Below, piece after piece: positions 2,974 to 55,322 of a stretch of DNA of 64,000 bases. Position numbers and translations under genes: made by a program. Each line of letters starts with the position of its first letter. The first letter of the stretch is position 1. The notes below the pieces were generated by a model, which was not told where the DNA came from, made no database searches, and saw only the letters and a program-made list of their open reading frames with translations. This DNA comes from Escherichia phage vB_EcoM-P3322: the sequence record PV191315.1; one strand, written 5' to 3'.

Positions 2974-3001
2974 ATGATACCTGAAAATAATTTCAGATCA
3001 A
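2974..3001 (-). promoter_or_regulatory. candidate sigma70-type promoter for leftward block (TTGATC-N16-TATCAT on minus strand)
   Basis: Hexamers read on minus strand in the divergent intergenic region; near-palindrome CTGAAAATAATTTCAG (2981-2996) sits in the spacer. Confidence 0.3.
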
Positions 3002-3004
3002 GTA

Positions 3005-3032
3005 TTGACATACTTTTTAATCTTGTTAAGAT
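3005..3032 (+). promoter_or_regulatory. candidate sigma70-type promoter (TTGACA-N16-TAAGAT)
   Basis: Consensus -35 at 3005-3010, -10 at 3027-3032, about 30 nt before the first plus-strand gene. Confidence 0.4.
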
Positions 3033-3062
3033 CAACTCCTACCAAACAAAAGGAGAAAACAA

Positions 3063-3506
3063 ATGCAAAACATCCAAAACATCAAACTGACTTGGCCCGA
3101 AGCTAAAGAAGCAATGAAGGAAGGTAGACGTGTTGAGCACCGCCATTTTTGTGGTGGCGAATGGTTTGAGATGCGAGATGGTGTTATTCTCGACGAACAA
3201 GGTTATAACATGGAAACTTGGTTCAGAGGGGAAGCTTGGCAGGAAGAGGGTTGGTCTGTAATTGAAAAAGAAGACAGTAAGGAAGAAGGCGTGTTGTCTA
3301 ATGTAGAACGCGAGATGAGGGAAACAAAGATACCTGCTTTGGATTTTGTATACCTGGAAGAACTTGTGGCAGCATCTTTTGTAGCAGGAAACCTTTGGAA
3401 TACACCTGTTAGCCGACTGGAGAACCTAAATAACCCGTCTGCTCGTAATCACAAGCTTTATAAGGGTAAAGGTCACAACAAATTAAAGAAAGGAAAGAAG
3501 AAATGA
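3063..3506 (+). CDS. hypothetical early protein; N-terminus recalls DUF2829-type small phage proteins
   Basis: Track ORF 147 aa; strong SD AAAAGGAGAAAAC; motif WPEAKEAMKEGRRVEHRHF; Lys-rich tail. Confidence 0.5.
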   Translation: MQNIQNIKLTWPEAKEAMKEGRRVEHRHFCGGEWFEMRDGVILDEQGYNMETWFRGEAWQEEGWSVIEKEDSKEEGVLSNVEREMRETKIPALDFVYLEELVAASFVAGNLWNTPVSRLENLNNPSARNHKLYKGKGHNKLKKGKKK

Positions 3507-3652
3507 TCTACAAAAACAAGTTCACTGGTTGTCTCCGTAAATTTATCAATAAGAAAGGGTATGTTTCTCTTGACAAGGGTGTTACGTGGGTGCAAAATGG
3601 CACTTCAGAACAACTGATCAAGGCTTTACCTTACTATGAGGAGGTTTTATGA
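3503..3652 (+). CDS. small hypothetical protein (49 aa)
   Basis: Not in track; ATG 3503 overlaps upstream stop (ATGA) and its stop overlaps next start; MIYKNKFTGCLRKFINKKGYVSLDKGVTWVQNGTSEQLIKALPYYEEVL. Confidence 0.4.
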   Translation: MIYKNKFTGCLRKFINKKGYVSLDKGVTWVQNGTSEQLIKALPYYEEVL

Positions 3653-3909
3653 CACTTTATCACGTAACTACAGAAGGCGACTGTGAAGGCCGCACTACAA
3701 AAGATTTGGGGTATGTTGAAGCAGATTCACCTGAACATGCTATCAAATACCTGCATTCCATCGGGAAGTATGCGGGTTATGAGTATACTATCTACGAGGT
3801 TGAAATTATTAACCTTATACAAGTGGCAACTCCTATGGCAGAGTTGAAACATCTTAAGGCAAAAGTAAGACCTGGTATAGTGTCCGATTACAAAGGGGAA
3901 GTAAAGTGA
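3649..3909 (+). CDS. hypothetical protein
   Basis: Track ORF 86 aa; SD GAGGAGG. Confidence 0.5.
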   Translation: MTLYHVTTEGDCEGRTTKDLGYVEADSPEHAIKYLHSIGKYAGYEYTIYEVEIINLIQVATPMAELKHLKAKVRPGIVSDYKGEVK

Positions 3910-4118
3910 GTGGATGGATTAAAGTATCTGGTACCGAGGATGTTCCTATCGGAGAGTGGCTTGTAATCATGGCAAACGGCAAGAAGGGATTCTGTGAAGT
4001 TAACAAAACACGCAATGGCACGATAGCTGTTATCAATGGTCATTTTTATTTTGACTTGGCACCTGTGATCGCATACCATGCACTACCAACATATGAAGAG
4101 GAGATTAACAATGGCTAA
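3906..4118 (+). CDS. hypothetical protein
   Basis: Track ORF 70 aa; GTG start overlapping upstream stop. Confidence 0.45.
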   Translation: MSGWIKVSGTEDVPIGEWLVIMANGKKGFCEVNKTRNGTIAVINGHFYFDLAPVIAYHALPTYEEEINNG

Positions 4119-4428
4119 CAAAGAACCACATGTATATACTGCACTGGTAAAGCACTTGAACAAAGAACGTAACAGGATCATTGCAGATTATCGTAAATTT
4201 AAACGTAATAGTCTAAATCGTAAATACATGCCACATGCAGCTTTTGACGCTACACGTGCAGTATTTCGTGCAAAGATTGCGGAAATGGATAATCTGCTTA
4301 AGCTTGCACGATTATCTATTCATGCATCCAAAGTAACAGGAGTCACTCACTTCTTTGACTTCGATACTAAAGCACTATATGCACCAGAAGCAGGTGAACA
4401 ATTGATTTATCTACTTACCAAAAAATAA
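4111..4428 (+). CDS. hypothetical protein
   Basis: Track ORF 4078..4428; start moved to ATG 4111 (MANKEPHVY) after GAAGAGGAG. Confidence 0.5.
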   Translation: MANKEPHVYTALVKHLNKERNRIIADYRKFKRNSLNRKYMPHAAFDATRAVFRAKIAEMDNLLKLARLSIHASKVTGVTHFFDFDTKALYAPEAGEQLIYLLTKK

Positions 4429-4431
4429 GTG

Positions 4432-4460
4432 TTGACTTTTTTCAAAAAATATGCTACCCT
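4432..4460 (+). promoter_or_regulatory. possible promoter (TTGACT -35 with weak -10); shares 15-nt motif AAAATAAGTGTTGAC with 17354-17368
   Basis: Good -35 but only weak -10 candidates; lies at the start of a 175-nt structured intergenic region. Confidence 0.25.
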
Positions 4461-4604
4461 AACCCCGAAGGGTCGAGCGATAGCGAGTATAGATTATGTA
4501 ATAGATTAATCTCTATCGTTAGATGTTCGAAGAACAGAGATTTAAGTACTTGTTCTTATCGGTAGATGATCGTAAGATCAAGAACAATAATAGGAGAGTG
4601 TGTT

Positions 4605-4802
4605 ATGTTAGTCAGTGAAATACTACCTGACTCTAATGGTAATCAGATCACTGTTGATTGGTTTCCTGGTACTGGTACACTAGATCTAACTGCTGAATGG
4701 TCTGGTGATATTTATGGAGAAGGTGTATTATCATTGTCTACAGAACAAATGATCATCCTTCGTGACTTCTTAATTAGTTTAGATCTAGGAGAAAACAAAT
4801 GA
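4605..4802 (+). CDS. hypothetical protein
   Basis: Track ORF 4566..4802; start moved to ATG 4605 after TAGGAGAG. Confidence 0.45.
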   Translation: MLVSEILPDSNGNQITVDWFPGTGTLDLTAEWSGDIYGEGVLSLSTEQMIILRDFLISLDLGENK

Positions 4803-5068
4803 GTAAAACTTCTGTTGAGTTTATCGAGAAATCCCCTGTTCCAAAGTTATACCGTTTATCTGAAATTGAACCTATGTCTGTTTTCTACTACTACGATTCA
4901 GAAGTAAGTGAACAAGAACGGGACTACTACTTAGCTACAGATACAGGTGCAGTGTGCTTAACAGGTTCTCGTGCAGGAGAATACATTGTGACTAGTCGTT
5001 TTAATGAAGCAGATTACTGTTGGGCTAAGGTTGAAACTAAGATTGTCATCAACATCACTAATCATTAA
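4799..5068 (+). CDS. hypothetical protein
   Basis: Track ORF 89 aa; ATGA overlap with upstream gene. Confidence 0.5.
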   Translation: MSKTSVEFIEKSPVPKLYRLSEIEPMSVFYYYDSEVSEQERDYYLATDTGAVCLTGSRAGEYIVTSRFNEADYCWAKVETKIVINITNH

Positions 5069-5090
5069 GACTAATCTGACAAAGAGTTAC

Positions 5091-5120
5091 TTGACATGTG
5101 CAAAGCTCTTTGTGTAGAAT
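5091..5120 (+). promoter_or_regulatory. candidate sigma70-type promoter (TTGACA-N18-TAGAAT)
   Basis: Consensus hexamers 30 nt upstream of 5151; flanked by inverted repeat ACAAAGAG...CTCTTTGT. Confidence 0.4.
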
Positions 5121-5150
5121 AAAGATTCACTTACTAAGGAGATTTTATAA

Positions 5151-5348
5151 ATGGCTACAAAGAAACAGAAAATGAAATGTCTTACTCTCACTGAACTGGG
5201 TCAAGCTTCCAACTGCGTTACTGTTGGTAAGATTTATTCTACAGTTCTTGATAAAGACAACAACAGTTTTACTTTCAAAGATGATAACGGAAACCCTCAA
5301 GTTGGAATCTACCCTTCCTGTGCTTTTGGTACTTGGGAAAAAGTGTAA
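5151..5348 (+). CDS. hypothetical protein
   Basis: Track ORF 65 aa; SD AAGGAG. Confidence 0.5.
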   Translation: MATKKQKMKCLTLTELGQASNCVTVGKIYSTVLDKDNNSFTFKDDNGNPQVGIYPSCAFGTWEKV

Positions 5349-5391
5349 CTAATTAGAGGGTATACTTGTAAACAAGATTAAGGAGGCATTT

Positions 5392-5565
5392 ATGGGAGAT
5401 AAACAAAGTAACATCCGTTACGCGCTTTATGGAAGAATGGGTGCAGATTGTGAATGGATGCTTCTGTCGCAACGTATACCCTCTTACAAAGAGGCTCTTG
5501 AAAAAAGAGACTATTACAAACAAACATGGCGTTTTGTCATTTGTAAACACTATTTGGAGGCGTGA
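5392..5565 (+). CDS. small Cys-containing hypothetical protein (57 aa)
   Basis: Not in track; SD AAGGAGG 5 nt before ATG 5392; stop overlaps next start; preferred over alternative-frame track ORF 5429..5653. Confidence 0.4.
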   Translation: MGDKQSNIRYALYGRMGADCEWMLLSQRIPSYKEALEKRDYYKQTWRFVICKHYLEA

Positions 5566-5873
5566 TGAGTACATTATCATTAGCAGTTACGGTGCACCAG
5601 TATTACGAAGAAGCTGTAAAAGATTCAGAAAATCCATCTACATTAGTATTTGAAGATCGGACTGGTCTTAAGTGGGTAGAATCTTGTGGTGAACTTTACT
5701 TTTGGTATCCACAAGGTTGCACAAGTAATTCTAATTTGTATAGTTATGAATTGGAGTATCGTGCGCCTGTAGACGAAGATGATAATTACATCATGTATTA
5801 TGTTAATAATGGTTGCGGTGAAACGTTTAATGTAGTATTCTCTAAAGCCTTGAAGTCCGACGAGGAAATGTAA
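5565..5873 (+). CDS. hypothetical protein, tandem paralog 1
   Basis: Track ORF 5562..5873; shares LSLAV..H..Y...VKD...P..L.F and YELE(Y/H)RAP..EDD..IM with the next gene. Confidence 0.5.
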   Translation: MSTLSLAVTVHQYYEEAVKDSENPSTLVFEDRTGLKWVESCGELYFWYPQGCTSNSNLYSYELEYRAPVDEDDNYIMYYVNNGCGETFNVVFSKALKSDEEM

Positions 5874-6178
5874 TGCGGCACAATACGACTTTAAGTTTGG
5901 CAGTTGCAGCCCACATGCTGTACAATGATTCTGTGAAGGATGAGTTGTCGCCTGTGAGTTTAGCTTTCCATCTGATAGACAGGGATTGGATGTTCTCTGG
6001 TGAGGATGAAATCTACTACGTAAATTCACGCGGTTTTATTGAAAGTTTTGAACTTGAACATCGCGCACCAACAGCAGAAGATGATCGTTTTATTATGTTC
6101 TGTGTAAATGATGGTTACGGAGAGGTATATGACGTAGTATTCTTCAAAAACCGACAGAAGACTGAAGAGGAATTCTAA
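5873..6178 (+). CDS. hypothetical protein, tandem paralog 2
   Basis: Track ORF 101 aa; TAATG overlap; paralog of 5565..5873. Confidence 0.5.
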   Translation: MRHNTTLSLAVAAHMLYNDSVKDELSPVSLAFHLIDRDWMFSGEDEIYYVNSRGFIESFELEHRAPTAEDDRFIMFCVNDGYGEVYDVVFFKNRQKTEEEF

Positions 6179-11937: not shown

Positions 11938-11943
11938 AACTTA

Positions 11944-15158: not shown

Positions 15159-15815
15159 ATGACTATTAAACATATCTCTTTTGATGTATGGAACACACTG
15201 ATCACAGCAAACTCCAATTACGCAGACATGCGAGCCTGGACTATCGCAAAATATGGAGATATTACGGAAGTGGAAGCAAGAGCAGCTTATAAAAAGATCA
15301 AAAAGGAACTGGATAATGCAGCACTTCAAGGCAAAGCCGAGTGTGCAGCATATGCTTGGGAAAGACTTGGTTCTGAACTTGGGATAACGCCTTGGAAGTC
15401 TGCAAAGCTTCGTTTCGAGTGTGAACAGTGGTTCCTTAAGTTTCCACCACACGTAGCCGTGGATCTGCCGATGTACTTGCTGTATCTTTCGGGGCGTTAT
15501 GATTTGAGTATTAAGAGCAATACCAACTTCATATCAGGGGATATCCTGCGTCGTGCTTGTAAGTTTGATAGTTGGAATTGTTTTGAGTTCACCCATTTCT
15601 CGGATGAAGCTTTACTTTGTAAACCAGATCCGCGATTCTTTGCTCGCACGCTCACGTATTCTCCGATCCCTCTGTTAGGGCACGAAGTGTTGCACGTAGG
15701 CGATAGTGAAGAATATGATGGAAAATGTGTTGACTTAGGATTTAACTTCTGTCATATTAAGAACCCTAACGACTTACTAGAGAAACTTAAAAGAGGAGAA
15801 ATTGTAAATGCGTAA
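15159..15815 (+). CDS. HAD-superfamily phosphatase-like hydrolase
   Basis: Motif I-like ISFDVWNTLI near N-terminus and motif IV-like HVGDSEEYD. Confidence 0.5.
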   Translation: MTIKHISFDVWNTLITANSNYADMRAWTIAKYGDITEVEARAAYKKIKKELDNAALQGKAECAAYAWERLGSELGITPWKSAKLRFECEQWFLKFPPHVAVDLPMYLLYLSGRYDLSIKSNTNFISGDILRRACKFDSWNCFEFTHFSDEALLCKPDPRFFARTLTYSPIPLLGHEVLHVGDSEEYDGKCVDLGFNFCHIKNPNDLLEKLKRGEIVNA

Positions 15816-17134: not shown

Positions 17135-17356
17135 ATGGGTGTTTTTGCAGGTATTGTTGCAGTGGTAAGCTTTTTTGTTATTGCTTTTATGCTTAGTTTG
17201 ATTCCAGCTTGGTTACTGTTGCTGGCTTACAACTATGTTGCTGAAGTTATGGGTCATGCAGATATCACTGTCCCAGTAACCTTCTGGACCGTGGTTTGTG
17301 TTTCGTTTATTCTGGCTGTATTACGAGGAATCTTTTCCTCTCATTCAACAAAATAA
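17135..17356 (+). CDS. small membrane protein (2 TM)
   Basis: Track ORF 73 aa; hydrophobic helices; SD AGGAGA. Confidence 0.5.
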   Translation: MGVFAGIVAVVSFFVIAFMLSLIPAWLLLLAYNYVAEVMGHADITVPVTFWTVVCVSFILAVLRGIFSSHSTK

Positions 17357-17359
17357 GTG

Positions 17360-17387
17360 TTGACATAGTTCTTAAAAAGAGTAAGAT
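17360..17387 (+). promoter_or_regulatory. candidate sigma70-type promoter (TTGACA-N16-TAAGAT) preceded by motif AAAATAAGTG
   Basis: Consensus hexamers in the 80-nt gap before the TerC-like gene. Confidence 0.4.
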
Positions 17388-17399
17388 GTATCACATGAA

Positions 17400-17418
17400 G
17401 CGGGGAATAGTTCCCCGC
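17400..17418 (+). promoter_or_regulatory. 5' leader stem-loop GCGGGGAA-TAG-TTCCCCGC
   Basis: Perfect 8-bp GC-rich stem between promoter and RBS, no T-run after it. Confidence 0.3.
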
Positions 17419-17435
17419 AAAGAGAGGAGAAAAGA

Positions 17436-29801: not shown

Positions 29802-31580
29802 GTGTCGCACATTATAACTAAATATGGATTTGATGTTGATCTTAGCAAGGAAGGACATACAGGTTGTCCGCGCTGCATGAAAAATGGCAAGGATCGCTCT
29901 CGTAATAACCTGATGGTTTATGGATTAGATTCTAATGGAGAGCATAAAGGTGCTAAGTGCTTTGCGTGTGAATACACTATTCCTAGCGTAGAATGGTTAC
30001 GAGAAAATGGTGAAGTTTTAGAAGAAGAGGAGGAGATTGTGGGTTCGGAATTTAATAAACAGATTCATCGTAAAATTGTTCAAGAAACATCAACCAACCC
30101 ACGTGGTTATCGAGGCATTAAAGAAAAAGTTTCATCTTTCTATGGTGTTCGTTATGAATACCGCCAGGAAGGGGATCAGATGGTAGTAGAAAGTTGTTTA
30201 TATCCAACTACTATCGGTAAAGAATTAGTTGGTTTTAAGCGTCGTATTCATCCTAAAGATTTCAGTAAACCTATTGGTCAAGTAGGTAAAGATGTAGATC
30301 TTTTTGGACAAATTCGTTTTGCAGACCGTTCTCATACTGTGGTAATTACAGGTGGTGAACACGATGCTCTGGCAGCTTATCAAATGCTGTCTGAAAACTT
30401 GGACAACAAATATGAACTTCCAGCAGTAGTTAGTGGCACAACTGGTGAAACCAGTATGTATAAACAAGTTCAGGCACAATATCCTTTCTTTGAAAAATTT
30501 AAGAAGATTATTGTTTGCATGGATAATGACAAAGCAGGTAATGAGGCATTTGAAAATATTGTTAAGGTGTTGCCTCGTAACAAAGTCTACCGTATGCAGA
30601 TGGATCTTAAGGATGCCAATCAGTATCTGGAAGAAGGTCGTGCAAAAGATTTCGTAAAAGCTTTTTGGAGTGCTCGTCTATACACCCCAGCAGGTGTTTA
30701 TGCTTCTAATGTCTTGTATGAAGCTGCATTAGAATGCTTGGAATCCAAGATGATTACCTTGCCTCCTTTTATGCGTGTTGCTGCAAATATGCTGGGTGGT
30801 GGTTTAGTAGAGGAAGAGATTACAGTTATCCTGGCGAAGACCAGTATCGGTAAAACTTTGATGGTGAACGAGATCACCAAACATATTATTGTTGCGCACC
30901 CAGAACATACCCTAGGTATTCTGTCCTTGGAAGCAACTTATAAGAAATATTCTCGTAACCTGTTGTCCTCGTTCCTGCATATTCCTCTACACAGGAAAAC
31001 ACCGGAAGAGAAATTTCAAATCTTGGAAGAGAATAAAGAAAAAATCCTAGATTTTTACGAAAGAGAAGATGGATCACCACGTTTTTATGTGTGTGATGAT
31101 CGTGGAGCAGATGTGGAGTCTATCAAAGAAAAAGTTTTGGAGATGATCATCTATTTTGGAGTAACAATTCTTGTTATCGACCCTTATTCTGATTTGCTTT
31201 CTGGTATGGATGTTCAAGCCCAGGAAGAGTTAGCAACATGGTTGAAGCGCATCATGAAAGAGTATGCTATAACTATTATTGTCATCTCACACGTTAAGAA
31301 ATCGGCTAATGGTGGCAATGAACACTTAACAGAGGACGATGCAATGGGTAGTAGTTTCTTGGCTAAAGGTGCTGGTATTACCTTGGCTTTGGAACGAGAT
31401 AAAGCCGCTGAAGACCCTGTAGAACGCAATACGACTCATTGCTTTATCCTAAAAAACCGTGAGTTCTCAGAAACTGGTCCGGCAGGGCAGTTTTACTATG
31501 ACATTAGAACTGCAACTCTGCATGACAAAGAGCAGTATTTCAACAATCCTGCTAATTTGCCTACGGATAGCAACTATTAA
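29802..31580 (+). CDS. bifunctional DNA primase-helicase (T7 gp4-like)
   Basis: N-terminal zinc ribbon CPRCMKNGKD...CFACEY; TOPRIM-like VVITGGEHDALAAYQ and CMDNDKAGNEA; helicase Walker A AKTSIGKT and Walker B-like LVIDPY. Confidence 0.7.
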   Translation: MSHIITKYGFDVDLSKEGHTGCPRCMKNGKDRSRNNLMVYGLDSNGEHKGAKCFACEYTIPSVEWLRENGEVLEEEEEIVGSEFNKQIHRKIVQETSTNPRGYRGIKEKVSSFYGVRYEYRQEGDQMVVESCLYPTTIGKELVGFKRRIHPKDFSKPIGQVGKDVDLFGQIRFADRSHTVVITGGEHDALAAYQMLSENLDNKYELPAVVSGTTGETSMYKQVQAQYPFFEKFKKIIVCMDNDKAGNEAFENIVKVLPRNKVYRMQMDLKDANQYLEEGRAKDFVKAFWSARLYTPAGVYASNVLYEAALECLESKMITLPPFMRVAANMLGGGLVEEEITVILAKTSIGKTLMVNEITKHIIVAHPEHTLGILSLEATYKKYSRNLLSSFLHIPLHRKTPEEKFQILEENKEKILDFYEREDGSPRFYVCDDRGADVESIKEKVLEMIIYFGVTILVIDPYSDLLSGMDVQAQEELATWLKRIMKEYAITIIVISHVKKSANGGNEHLTEDDAMGSSFLAKGAGITLALERDKAAEDPVERNTTHCFILKNREFSETGPAGQFYYDIRTATLHDKEQYFNNPANLPTDSNY

Positions 31581-31599
31581 GGGCTTCGGCCCTTTTATT
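31581..31599 (+). terminator. rho-independent terminator
   Basis: GGGCTTCGGCCC hairpin followed by TTTTATT directly after primase-helicase stop. Confidence 0.65.
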
Positions 31600-31610
31600 A
31601 AAAATACCTG

Positions 31611-31639
31611 TTGACAACTTTACGGAAGAGACTTATACT
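31611..31639 (+). promoter_or_regulatory. strong candidate sigma70-type promoter (TTGACA-N17-TATACT)
   Basis: Near-consensus hexamers with optimal spacing, about 30 nt before 31673. Confidence 0.55.
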
Positions 31640-31672
31640 TGTCTCATCAACCAAACAAGAGGAGAAGTAAAA

Positions 31673-32104
31673 ATGCGTATGACAATCGATCTGAATGCAA
31701 AAGTTAAAGCTGCTGGTGCTCTGGGTGCTGGTGTTATTAAACACAAACAAGCGTTGGCATTTGCCATCCCACATATGATTGTTGAGGATCATCCTGAAGA
31801 GTTTGCTGTAAAAGTTGTTGAGAACAATGTCTCTGTTATTGAACATCTTCCAACTGGACGTTCTTACCGTGTTGTTTCTTCTAAAGGTTTCCGTTTCGAT
31901 GTAAGCCCTTCTTTCACAAAAGGTGCTGGTCGTAGTAAAGTGGGTATTCTTTCTTACAAATATTATATCGATAAAGTTGCAGATGGTGTCGCATTCTGTC
32001 GTGTAAGTGAAGGTAAAGTAGATATCATCTTTAAAAATACCAAAAACATGGTTATTTCTGACGATGGTAAAGTTGACCTCACTATTGAGTTCGCTAACAA
32101 CTAA
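31673..32104 (+). CDS. hypothetical protein, expression-optimised (143 aa)
   Basis: SD AGGAGAAG; heavy CTG/GGT/GCT/CGT codon usage like TerD and SSB genes; strongest promoter in window. Confidence 0.6.
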   Translation: MRMTIDLNAKVKAAGALGAGVIKHKQALAFAIPHMIVEDHPEEFAVKVVENNVSVIEHLPTGRSYRVVSSKGFRFDVSPSFTKGAGRSKVGILSYKYYIDKVADGVAFCRVSEGKVDIIFKNTKNMVISDDGKVDLTIEFANN

Positions 32105-53168: not shown

Positions 53169-55322
53169 CTATATATAAAATTTTTGTGTTGTTACTAAAT
53201 CTTCTCCAGATTTAGTAGCTAATGTAATTCCACTTATGGTAGCAATCTCAACATTTGCTTGTTTAAGAGTGATATCTTGCAAATAACAATTCAAAGGCAC
53301 ATTACCCATATAGAAAACTTGGGATTGAGAATTAACTACCGTGATGGAATCATGCATTATTTGAGGATAGGCCCATATATATTGTGTAAGCCCATTGAAC
53401 TTATTGGCGTTCAACACTATATTACCTATAATCATTTTCCAAAGATACGTGCGGTAGTTTGATTCAGGATCGAAGCCATACAAAGGTGCAAGAGTAGCAT
53501 CTGGAACAAAACCCGAAAGATAGTGAATATCAGAATATTCAAAACCTAATTTTTCATGTGGTATGGTAATTGCATCGAATGCTTTCATCATTTTACCTTC
53601 CAGAAGCCAGTCGTAACACTCTGAACAGTAAAAATCAAAAGTTTCAGGAATGTAGTAATCAGACGGAAAGTTAACTTTCTCCATCAAACCGTTGCCAATA
53701 ATTGACGGTAAGAACGGAAGCAATGTTACTTTAGCTCCTGGATAAGTTGCTCTAGTGTCTGTTGCAAACTTTGTAACTCTTAATCCTAGTTTACGAGACA
53801 AAAATGCATAGTATTCGTCAAACGGTGTTCCTGTTTTATAATTATCTATTGTTCCTGCATCTTGTGCAAATAAGCCTGTTTCTGTATTGAATGCTAGTTT
53901 GGTAGTGTAATCATATATACAAGGCATTTTACTTGCTGTATTATACCACCACCAAGGTTCACCAATTTGAATGACGACTGGAATATTGTTAGTTTGAGAA
54001 ATAGATGCTATTTTGTTAATAACATTTTGCAAATATTCCATACCTTCATCAATAGTTGGAGACAACACGTAACTAGGAGGCTTATACCCTGTTGCTGCAA
54101 GAGCATCGTTCCAATCATGCTGGACCCATTCAACAGGACAAACTGTGCTCATCAACTCAAAACTCAAAGAGTTCATTATTGTGTAGCCATTTTCATTAGC
54201 TATAGAATGGAAACTGTTAAGCCAAGCTTCTGTAGCCGGATTCAGGAAAACAGATCTATTTAAAGCCCAAGATGTTCCGTTCCATGAGAACTCATAATAG
54301 TGAGACATTCCGTTGTAATGGTTAATCATTCCACGATAACCTAGTGCATATGTATTATAAATAACTCTCTCTGGAGTCAGGTTATACATATCATCATAAG
54401 ATGTGCACATGCGAATATCATGTTCAGGCTGGACAAGGTTGCTGACTTTCATCATACTGTAACCAGAAGTAGGTTCAAGAAGAGTGAAAGTAAACCAAGC
54501 CTCTTGACTGGCAATAGGTACAATCTCTTCTATTTCTTCATACCTTGCTGTAATCAAAGAGAAGAAAATATTATCTACAGCATTCATATCCAAAGGAATA
54601 TCATTATTAGGGCCAGAAAAGATATTACCAAAATCTAACTTTATTGTGGCTGTTTTACCATCTTCTGAAATATCTGAAGCGTAGAATCCTAAACTGACAT
54701 AATGAACACTTTTATCCAGGAGAGTTACAGTCAAAGTCGGCACCAAAGGTTCTTCTTTAAAACCTGGCATGTTTTGACTAATTTCCATTTTAAACCAAAG
54801 TTTCTCTGAACTTAAATCTGTGTGAGGCAAATACCCAACACCTTTATGGTCATATTTGTCAACTGTGCTCCAGATAACCCCTGCCAAACCTGCTGTTGTT
54901 CTGTTTACAAATCTTGCAGTAAAAGAGTCTCCATGAGATACAATAGAACAACTTTCCGTTGCTTGAGAATCTATTGTCCAATACATAGGAGAGAACATTT
55001 TAACGTCTTTTGTAGTCCAAGTTATTGGAGTAGTGTTTTCTTGGATAGTAGTTATAATACAATTGATGGTTGTTTCAACCATCATGTTATTTTGACTAAT
55101 CCCTGAAACTTGGAGGGAGAAGTTAAGATCTATTGAGTTCTTTGGTCGTTCAAATACTTCAACCACAATAGTAGCAGAATCAGCATCATCAGGGAACACA
55201 AGTGTTCCCGATTTTGCAATATAATCTCTACCAGCGACTGCTGTTCCGTCAACAGTCGTGTAGTTAAATGAACTCGCATTTACTCTCTTGTCTCGCGTGA
55301 CAGTAAATATAGCTTGTTTCAT
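53169..55322 (-). CDS. large virion structural protein (717 aa)
   Basis: Track ORF with strong coding continuity in structural operon; no motif recognised. Confidence 0.45.
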   Translation of the reverse strand: MKQAIFTVTRDKRVNASSFNYTTVDGTAVAGRDYIAKSGTLVFPDDADSATIVVEVFERPKNSIDLNFSLQVSGISQNNMMVETTINCIITTIQENTTPITWTTKDVKMFSPMYWTIDSQATESCSIVSHGDSFTARFVNRTTAGLAGVIWSTVDKYDHKGVGYLPHTDLSSEKLWFKMEISQNMPGFKEEPLVPTLTVTLLDKSVHYVSLGFYASDISEDGKTATIKLDFGNIFSGPNNDIPLDMNAVDNIFFSLITARYEEIEEIVPIASQEAWFTFTLLEPTSGYSMMKVSNLVQPEHDIRMCTSYDDMYNLTPERVIYNTYALGYRGMINHYNGMSHYYEFSWNGTSWALNRSVFLNPATEAWLNSFHSIANENGYTIMNSLSFELMSTVCPVEWVQHDWNDALAATGYKPPSYVLSPTIDEGMEYLQNVINKIASISQTNNIPVVIQIGEPWWWYNTASKMPCIYDYTTKLAFNTETGLFAQDAGTIDNYKTGTPFDEYYAFLSRKLGLRVTKFATDTRATYPGAKVTLLPFLPSIIGNGLMEKVNFPSDYYIPETFDFYCSECYDWLLEGKMMKAFDAITIPHEKLGFEYSDIHYLSGFVPDATLAPLYGFDPESNYRTYLWKMIIGNIVLNANKFNGLTQYIWAYPQIMHDSITVVNSQSQVFYMGNVPLNCYLQDITLKQANVEIATISGITLATKSGEDLVTTQKFYI

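Follow-up and report, generated by a model that had tools for sequence, protein, structure and literature searches.

What kind of element occupies the intergenic gap at 4429-4604 of Escherichia phage vB_EcoM-P3322 (sequence record PV191315.1)? We analyzed a stretch of 64,000 nucleotides of this phage, called the window below. An earlier note on the same DNA had described the gap as a structured region in which a 15-mer, AAAATAAGTGTTGAC, repeated once further along the window, could belong to a regulated promoter and leader, a small RNA, or a protein-binding site shared by two transcription units. The 15-mer that prompted this follow-up carries no specific information. In itself the region is an ordinary promoter with its leader; what is new in it is a hairpin motif, linked to the promoter and shared across the subfamily. 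We consider it probable, judging from the sequence, that 4432-4487 is one copy (class A) of a promoter-hairpin cassette whose hairpin acts in RNA as a cis element.

The window comes from a Phapecoctavirus, a phAPEC8-like E. coli myovirus of the subfamily Stephanstirmvirinae. A search with positions 3000-6000 matched 125 phage records, headed by Escherichia phage dw-ec (OL739525.1) at 99.3% identity and followed in rank by further Phapecoctavirus phages.

The predicted promoter and its attached hairpin

A sensitive DNA search with a 241-nt query (window 4400-4640) showed that Phapecoctavirus records are at least 97% identical over the whole region, and that about 60 Justusliebigvirus records and Citrobacter phage Tr1 match window 4428-4506 only. 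The common cassette, which corresponds to window 4432-4487, consists of TTGAC(T/A), 14-15 nt, TGcTACCCTA, 12-16 variable nt, CGAGCG, 2-3 nt, and GCGAG, and it is kept in other genera though the surrounding DNA cannot be aligned. In the window copy, TTGACT is separated from the TACCCT of TGcTACCCT by a hexamer spacing of 17 nt, and a further 13 nt lead to CGAGC-GNNA-GCGAG. Pattern scans of IMG/VR and metagenome contigs, followed by filtering, yielded at least 47 distinct variants; the two loosest patterns gave chance matches in G+C-rich contigs among the matches listed, and an IMG/VR search with the protein encoded upstream of the cassette returned no confirmed loci. This upstream protein is homologous in five lineages at 36-57% amino acid identity, and the promoter and hairpin core beside it are almost invariant. 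Such divergence of the flanking genes next to a near-invariant cassette points to strong purifying selection on the cassette.

The 5′ part of the cassette has the layout of a σ70 promoter. On the plus strand the −35 hexamer TTGACT (4432-4437) lies 17 nt ahead of TACCCT (4455-4460), which is preceded by TG (4452-4453) and a C and followed by an invariant A4461, together an extended −10 element at 4452-4461. The −35 hexamer, which was absent from every search pattern, is TTGACT in 27 of the 47 variants, TTGACA in 9, TTTACT in 9, and TTTACA in 2, and its spacer to TACCCT measures 17 nt in 34 variants and 18 nt in 10. The TG one base 5′ of TACCCT is invariant, and TGNTACCCTA was present in every Stephanstirmvirinae match, even with a pattern that omitted the TG. 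The sixth base after the −10 element is a pyrimidine in 45/47 variants and the seventh a purine in 43/47; a pyrimidine/purine step at that spacing is the canonical σ70 start context. From this conserved context we predict that transcription starts at G4467 (or A4468) on the plus strand. With a −35-like hexamer 16-18 bp from TAnnnT and a TG at −15/−14, we infer that 4432-4467 is a σ70 extended −10 promoter with its start at about G4467. The suggestion of a promoter and leader in the earlier note is borne out by the −35 hexamer, the TG, the T, A, and T of the −10 element, the 17-18 nt spacing, and the start context, all kept in the 47 variants. A candidate terminator on the minus strand (4473-4456) was rejected for three reasons: the T-run lies 6 nt from the stem, the feature as such lacks conservation, and the genes on either side are both plus-strand genes.

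The 3′ part of the cassette is a small hairpin (hairpin 2), whose core, CGAGC-GATA-GCGAG in the window, spans 4474-4487 on the plus strand, that is, +8 to +21 of the predicted transcript. The core is unique within the window, has the general form CGAGC-G(N1-2)A-GCGAG, and was invariant across 30 distinct variants. It comprises a C-G pair, tandem G·A and A·G pairs, and G-C and C-G pairs under a loop of 3-4 nt that starts with G and nearly always ends with A. Stable sheared tandem G·A pairs are classically found where 5′-CGAG-3′ stands opposite 5′-CGAG-3′. Among the 47 variants, the distance from the −10 element to the core ranges from 12 to 16 nt and the length of the loop varies by 1 nt. A K-turn reading of the tandem G·A pairs was discarded, because no 3-nt bulge was seen on inspection.

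The three positions that flank the core on each side pair with one another and covary, with 76% of cells paired. The first pair of this lower stem is CG in 18 variants, AU in 7, GU in 1, and unpaired in 4; the third is UG in 12, UA in 11, CG in 4, and GU in 1. The alternation of CG and AU at the first pair spans several genera and all three classes of the cassette described below. The covariation score was 0.272 against 0.155 in shuffles, none of 500 of which reached it, and against 0.08-0.16 when the partner was slid, and independent permutation of the hairpin flanks gave p ~5e-4; as the variants are phylogenetically related, these shuffle and permutation figures are inflated and overstate independence. 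With RNA parameters, hairpin 2 was the minimum-free-energy fold in five of six variants tested (−4.3 to −9.5 kcal/mol), whereas with DNA parameters it was marginally stable. Owing to its G·A and many G·U pairs, the structure is specific to the transcribed-sense strand, and we infer that it acts as RNA.

Besides the relatedness of the variants, several points weigh against this interpretation. TACCCT fits TATAAT at three of six positions, which is why a simple promoter scan misses the promoter at 4452-4460; the record of the close relative ASO2A, in which promoters are annotated by consensus similarity, likewise misses it. The invariant CCC of the −10 element and the A that follows are unexplained by σ70 recognition, and a literature search for transcript data on members of the subfamily came back empty. 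Of the hairpins, the window's own is the weakest: its flanks are T·T, it has no lower stem, and its core is worth about −0.8 kcal/mol, and the CGATAG within it can pair instead with CTATCG at 4513-4518. G-N(1-2)-A loops and the GCGAAGC core that some variants carry are also the rule for very stable DNA mini-hairpins, and by these rules the non-template DNA strand may have a role.

Another hairpin (hairpin 1, ACCC-CGAA-GGGT, 4462-4473, plus strand) straddles the predicted start and is weak. It reads ACCCcgaaGGGT in the window and AAACatatGTTT or ACCTgaaAGGT elsewhere, an inverted repeat of 3-5 bp kept by differing sequences, with a mean best stem of 3.3 against 2.65 in shuffled sequences for a set of variants that are related. 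As a real element hairpin 1 is suggestive only, and it stays unproven because its "loop" coincides with the conserved pyrimidine/purine start context.

Rfam 15 gave nothing for the window at the gathering threshold, and the three cassette copies of dw-ec produced chance-level matches alone (E above 2, searched to E 10). A literature search for the core sequence and for transcription in the subfamily found nothing relevant. By Rfam and the literature searched, the cassette is apparently previously undescribed.

The core was also seen outside the subfamily. At the metagenome loci L271, L321, and L298, on contigs not phage-like in appearance, GTCATTCCGAGCG(A/C)AGCGAGGAATC and GTCATTCCGAGCGATAGCGAGGAATCC contain the same core on a 5-bp ATTCC/GGAAT lower stem, and the core hairpin seems to recur as a structural module in settings that are unrelated. 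A group of unrelated IMG/VR viral contigs of G+C ~0.40-0.44, with terminase and portal genes just downstream, has two divergent copies of TATACCCTATCCCCCCC(A/T)ACGAGCG(A/G)AGCGAG separated by about 100 nt (L137, L138, L142, L174, L187, L190, L209, L215, L219, L234, L245-L254, L256, L259, L262-L265). These have TACCCTA and the G·A hairpin with no TTGAC −35 hexamer; many lie near contig ends, and the match is partly forced by the search pattern.

Three copies per genome and their possible role

The genomes of dw-ec and of Justusliebigvirus PD211 were assembled from their records and scanned whole. Each contains exactly three copies of the cassette, as do four near-complete metagenomic or viral contigs, making six near-complete Stephanstirmvirinae genomes in total. 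The copies fall into three classes, A, B, and C, which recur in PD211, phiWec179-like contigs, Tr1, and Klebsiella phages. Class A (dw-ec 130,117, minus strand) is equivalent to window 4452 and is the sole class inside the window. Class B (dw-ec 53,791, plus strand) is found about 1.2 kb upstream of the tRNA cluster, at a divergent junction, and class C (dw-ec 15,734, minus strand), which reads TGgTACCCTA, lies between two genes of the opposite strand. This antisense position of class C indicates that the cassette is autonomous and more than the 5′ end of one mRNA.

Some 270 nt of non-coding DNA follow class B, and in them are two blocks of extreme AT-richness and several GATC sites. The tract (dw-ec ~53,770-54,070, plus strand; ~3870-4170 of locus L238) has clustered GATC/TAGATC words and a second promoter-like site, TTGATC-N17-TACAGT, and GATCTAACAGAC-type motifs recur at the equivalent place in PD211, Tr1, and phiWec179-like contigs; it looks like an origin-like or complex control region. 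Class C is followed by about 100-130 nt of non-coding, hairpin-rich sequence. This tract (dw-ec ~15,600-15,760, minus strand; L237) has strong hairpins, for example GUUUCAU..CUCAC-GAUA-GUGAG..AUGAAAC, and equivalents in L074 (3050-3200), L032, L260, L266, and L267. It found no match in Rfam and is a candidate small or antisense RNA. TAGAT words after the three dw-ec copies numbered 14 against 1.2 expected, a comparison whose background is the whole genome and not intergenic DNA; the enriched word in PD211 is a different one.

Downstream of class A, the first gene encodes a predicted membrane protein of ~88 aa in PHB05, Tr1, and L094, and an unrelated 178-aa protein in phiWec179. The window has neither gene, and its cassette leads straight to a homologue of the second gene of Tr1. 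Going by this gene content, small genes are gained and lost at the junction that the class A cassette occupies.

In the explanation we favor, host Eσ70 would bind TTGACT (4432-4437) and the extended −10 element TGcTACCCT (4452-4460), and transcription would begin at about G4467. The first ~25 nt of RNA would fold into the CGAGC-GNNA-GCGAG hairpin with its two sheared G·A pairs, and this hairpin would act as a cis element in the nascent or mature RNA, either as the site for a dedicated phage or host factor or as a 5′-end stabilizer. The transcript would then run through a 138-nt leader, whose repeats are specific to the lineage, and on past the Shine-Dalgarno sequence (4592-4598) into the 65-aa gene at 4605 and the genes that follow it. 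An invariant core combined with a free lower stem is most simply explained by a factor recognition site or a stabilizing structure near the 5′ end. A bolder form of this explanation, possible though rather doubtful, is that the three sites form a regulon and the cassette is a dedicated Stephanstirmvirinae cis module with a hairpin that a specific factor of phage or host recognizes and that is not a mere stabilizing stem-loop; the module could, for example, be a promoter-proximal antitermination or RNA-tagging signal of a new kind, or a replication-origin primer-RNA signal.

T4 oriF and oriG are origins made of a promoter and an unwinding element, and the cassettes could mark replication origins, with the purine-rich initial transcript and the displaced-strand hairpin favoring an R-loop from which DNA synthesis is primed. 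A set of three copies in a genome of ~150 kb, placed without regard to gene orientation and one of them antisense, would suit this role, as would the extremely AT-rich blocks and clustered GATC/TAGATC words that precede the next gene after class B in several genera, and the fit of the G-N-A loops and GCGAAGC core to the DNA mini-hairpin rules. Diversity-generating retroelements (DGRs), moreover, use a DNA hairpin of the same core and loop type (PMC3240598). However, the window's copy has a gene within 138 nt and no AT-rich unwinding block, and the sequence after the hairpin is not G-rich. The lower stem is rich in G·U pairs, which are poor in DNA, and so argues for RNA; with DNA parameters the hairpin is barely stable. 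The turning points of skew in the window coincide with changes in the direction of transcription, so skew is uninformative on an origin. On balance we judge an origin function unlikely.

Under processive antitermination, transcription would read through the terminators of long early or middle units because the hairpin recruits a phage factor or itself acts on RNA polymerase. λ nut boxB and HK022 put are promoter-proximal elements with this function, and the hairpin of the cassette always lies a few nt past the start of a conserved promoter and combines an invariant loop-proximal core with a variable lower stem. Classes A and B are also found near the heads of long co-directional blocks with terminator-like hairpins downstream, for example at 11943 and 18417. 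Class C, however, faces as much as ~15 kb of opposite-strand genes in the antisense direction, where read-through would be harmful. In addition, the hairpin is far smaller than put, a two-stem RNA of ~70 nt; no boxA-like element is evident, and no candidate N- or Q-like protein was identified in an analysis that included no search aimed at N-like factors. These differences make antitermination improbable.

We give equally little credence to a promoter-only explanation, in which the downstream sequence acts in double-stranded DNA by tuning escape or start choice and the hairpin is incidental. Strong phage promoters are known to be modulated by their initial transcribed sequences, and the window's own copy scarcely forms the hairpin. 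For T5 N25, such an effect of the initial transcribed sequence is described in the accessible part of one report (PMC12464699). A −10 to core distance of 12-16 nt and a loop that varies by 1 nt are nevertheless hard to reconcile with fixed polymerase contacts, and the bases flanking the core covary as pairs.

The phAPEC8-like and phi92-like phages are often isolated and used as therapeutic candidates, and their transcription and replication programs are unmapped. The cassette offers three easily testable anchor points per genome, each a conserved promoter and start site to which an RNA or DNA hairpin is attached. Should the hairpin bind a factor, the cassettes would define a small regulon and help to find that factor; should the cassettes be origins, none in the subfamily would have been mapped before them.

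The leader, the repeated 15-mer, and the surrounding genes

The predicted untranslated leader comprises 138 nt (4467-4604) and ends in the Shine-Dalgarno sequence AGGAGAG (4592-4598, plus strand), 6 nt 5′ of the ATG at 4605. Its variable 5′ part (4488-4591, plus strand) is lineage-specific and contains local repeats: a local direct repeat of TATCGnTAGATGnTCG followed by AAGAACA, and the plus-strand direct repeats TATCGTTAGATGTTCG (4514-4529) and TATCGGTAGATGATCG (4557-4572). None of the leader repeat words was found elsewhere in the genome. The inverted repeats listed in the earlier note are all present on the plus strand, namely CGATAG/CTATCG (4478-4483/4513-4518), AAGAACA/TGTTCTT (4530-4536/4551-4557), and TTGTTCTT/AAGAACAA (4550-4557/4580-4587). 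Three of these units (AAGAACA, TGTTCTT, and AAGAACAA) make two mutually exclusive hairpins possible just upstream of the Shine-Dalgarno sequence, and the ribosome-binding site (RBS) is not obviously sequestered in the leader fold.

The block 4512-4588 is about 90% identical in phiWec179, with substitutions concentrated in the AAGAACA/TGTTCTT loop. This repeat itself is kept in phiWec179 with no compensatory change, in a comparison of two sequence types, and long-range pairing of CGATAG with CTATCG was rejected, since it is not conserved there. The minimum-free-energy z-score of 4429-4610 was −2.8 against −2.5 for the opposite strand, and that of the transcript from the predicted start was unremarkable (−1.4), which lends the description of the region as structured little weight.

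The ASO2A record has a WebGeSTer "terminator" at the equivalent of 4549-4592. The TTGTTCTT/AAGAACAA stem is A+T-rich, is followed by TAATAGGAG without a U-run, and did not appear in a terminator scan of the plus strand. An intrinsic terminator at 4549-4592 was rejected for want of a G+C-rich stem and a U-run, and we correct the existing annotation, which falls inside what is more likely a 5′ leader. Small open reading frames (ORFs) in the leader (26, 31, and 22 aa) were also rejected, as they have no RBS and the ATG at 4523 is lost in phiWec179. A 78-aa extension of the downstream gene from the ATG at 4566 has no Shine-Dalgarno sequence, and the start at 4605 is preferred, as in the ASO2A record.

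The 15-mer AAAATAAGTGTTGAC does have two exact copies on the plus strand, at 4422-4436 and 17350-17364 and not, as first given, from 4423 and 17354 (off by 1 and 4), and the gap of 175 nt reported with it measures 176 nt. Each copy includes the TAA stop of the preceding ORF (4078-4428; 17135-17356) and the start of a −35 hexamer. The copy at 4422 is made of an A-tract, which resembles an UP-element subsite, the TAA at 4426-4428, and TGTTGAC, which supplies the first five bases of the −35 hexamer. Repeated 15-mers number 12 in the window (10 independent pairs); Markov shuffles lead one to expect 5.5, and a single shuffle gave as many as 14, which places the exact repeat within chance. A search for further copies of this 15-mer with up to three mismatches gave 8 matches against 5.2 expected; the real paralogues of the region are the cassettes at dw-ec 53,791 and 15,734. 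TGTTGAC-N15-19-TANNNT is enriched in the window (7 against 1.5 expected), so that the shared part of the 15-mer reflects a recurrent extended −35 element and no specific shared site. The nine bases before TTGAC at the homologous locus differ in phiWec179, PHB05, and Tr1, and the upstream half of the 15-mer is unconserved in other genera.

The second site (17350-17435, plus strand) is an unrelated σ70 promoter, with TTGACA at 17360-17365, a 16-nt spacer, and TAAGAT at 17382-17387. The hairpin GCGGGGAATAGTTCCCCGC (17400-17418, plus strand) lies between this promoter and the RBS of a gene for a TerC-like membrane protein (ATG 17436). It is a perfect 8-bp hairpin, GCGGGGAA-TAG-TTCCCCGC; the ASO2A record calls it a terminator, and, having no U-run, it is more likely a stem-loop of the 5′ untranslated region. 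The second site has neither TACCCTA nor CGAGC..GCGAG, its hairpin is unrelated to hairpin 2, and the sites at 4422 and 17350 have nothing in common downstream of the −35 hexamer. A third promoter (31601-31639) carries the similar AAAATAccTGTTGAC directly 3′ of a good terminator, which marks the 15-mer as generic promoter context. In the stretch around it (31575-31680) a textbook terminator (GGGCTTCGGCCC then TTTTATT) is followed at once by the promoter AAAATAccTGTTGACA-N17-TATACT and then an RBS, a terminator/promoter composite like the PeSL cassettes discussed below, with a third near-copy of the 15-mer (13/15 bases).

To judge by these comparisons, it is by coincidence that 4422 and 17350 share the 15-mer, two otherwise unrelated σ70 promoters each having a −35 element of TGTTGAC type preceded by an A-tract and a TAA stop. 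A specific regulatory or protein site (AAAATAAGTG at both sites) that couples the units at 4.4 and 17.35 kb, or a small RNA that ends at the 4549-4592 hairpin, could appeal to 15 identical nt placed at a stop codon each time and to the "terminator" of ASO2A, and is very improbable given chance repeats of this length, the unconserved upstream 9 nt, two sites that share nothing 3′ of the −35 hexamer, the generic context at 31601-31639, and an annotated terminator without a U-run. Since the region contains no hairpin with a U-run after it, a small RNA is unlikely to end there. The observation of the earlier note is thus partly confirmed and its first interpretation partly supported.

Gene direction changes twice in the window: minus strand up to ~2.95 kb, plus strand between ~3.06 and 38 kb, and minus strand beyond; the region lies 1.4 kb inside the plus-strand block. 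The 176-nt gap separates a 116-aa gene (4078-4428, plus strand, PHROG 14778), syntenic in all lineages and ending in the TAA at 4426-4428, from a 65-aa gene (4605-4802, plus strand, PHROG 25113), the first of its unit, which starts at ATG 4605. The function of both PHROGs is unknown, and neither protein matched Pfam. With no terminator between the upstream gene and the promoter, read-through is expected from a promoter at ~3005-3032. No tRNA or tmRNA was found in the window. ASO2A, ECO340P1, PNJ1809-36, and other close relatives have an extra gene of ~320 bp (ASO2A_244) that is absent from the window; this indel lies at window ~3650 (L001 1151-1474), in a small-gene block just upstream of the region.

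Two further observations concern the database records. Phages labelled as infecting Campylobacter, Acinetobacter, Pseudomonas, or Serratia are 97-100% identical, in non-coding DNA, to these E. coli phages, and probably either the host labels are wrong or the phages were propagated from contaminants. In OL739525.1 (dw-ec), all 187 of 187 annotated features fall within the first 50 kb, many of them overlapping on both strands, and the remaining 100 kb has no annotation, which makes the annotation of the window's closest relative unusable.

Comparison with known systems

DGRs have a hairpin or cruciform 3′ of the variable region, which is required as a DNA hairpin for retrohoming and whose loop acts in a sequence-dependent manner with the consensus 5′-GRNA on the sense strand (PMC3240598). 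At the IMG/VR locus L180 (2724-2755), we found CCGAGC-GATA-GCGAGG directly 3′ of the stop codon that ends a 641-aa gene, with genes for bAvd (PF22296) and reverse transcriptase (PF00078) after it; hairpins of this DGR type occur at L144, L148, L156, L160, L180, L221, and L233. The tandem-G·A core at L180 is the same as that of the cassette, and the GATA loop of the window fits GRNA. The DGR element, however, acts as DNA beside a variable region, whereas the hairpin of the cassette is tied to a promoter and uses G·U pairs in its lower stem. No bAvd or reverse transcriptase gene was adjacent to any cassette examined, in a comparison that did not extend to whole genomes, and the window locus has no variable region or C-type-lectin-like target. 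The likeness is one of structural resemblance, not membership.

With T4 oriF and oriG the cassettes share several sites per genome in either orientation and, for class B, a transcript that would enter AT-rich non-coding DNA. Unlike these origins, the window copy is not followed by an AT-rich element, which class B, outside the window, does have.

The cassette is closer to λ nut and HK022 put in having a small hairpin early in the transcript, few copies per genome, and a purine-rich G...A loop, and in a covarying stem that is variable where the loop-proximal part is constrained. It differs in its loop of 3-4 nt in place of a pentaloop, its tandem G·A pairs, and one copy placed where read-through would be senseless. 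There is no sequence similarity and no Rfam match, no boxA was noticed, and no N-like protein was identified, with the limit on that search given above.

The nearest known concept is that of the PeSL (promoter-early stem-loop) cassettes of T4-like phages, which are, in the portions of two reports available to us, composite terminator/promoter motifs that are numerous in hyperplastic regions (PMC2839356, PMC4122927). Set against that partial description, the cassette resembles them in being short, in joining an early-type promoter to a stem-loop, and in being repeated within a genome. Class A moreover lies, as PeSL cassettes would, at an indel or replacement junction, with an upstream gene homologous in five lineages and a first downstream gene that differs or is absent. 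As far as the same portions go, the cassette departs from PeSL in a hairpin that lies 3′ of the start site, has no U-run, and keeps an invariant G·A core, and in its three copies, one of them antisense. No terminator precedes the promoter, whose −35 hexamer is abutted by a stop codon.

The promoter part resembles the σ70 extended −10 (TGn) promoters, among them the strong early promoters of T-even and T5 phages, with which it shares TTGAC(T/A), TG, TAnnnT, a pyrimidine/purine start, and a spacer of 17-18 nt in which a T-run is followed by an A-run, with A-rich sequence upstream. Unlike these promoters, the cassette always has TACCCT and an A as its −10 element, with a CCC that σ70 contacts do not account for, and it is always coupled to a specific downstream hairpin in three copies per genome only.

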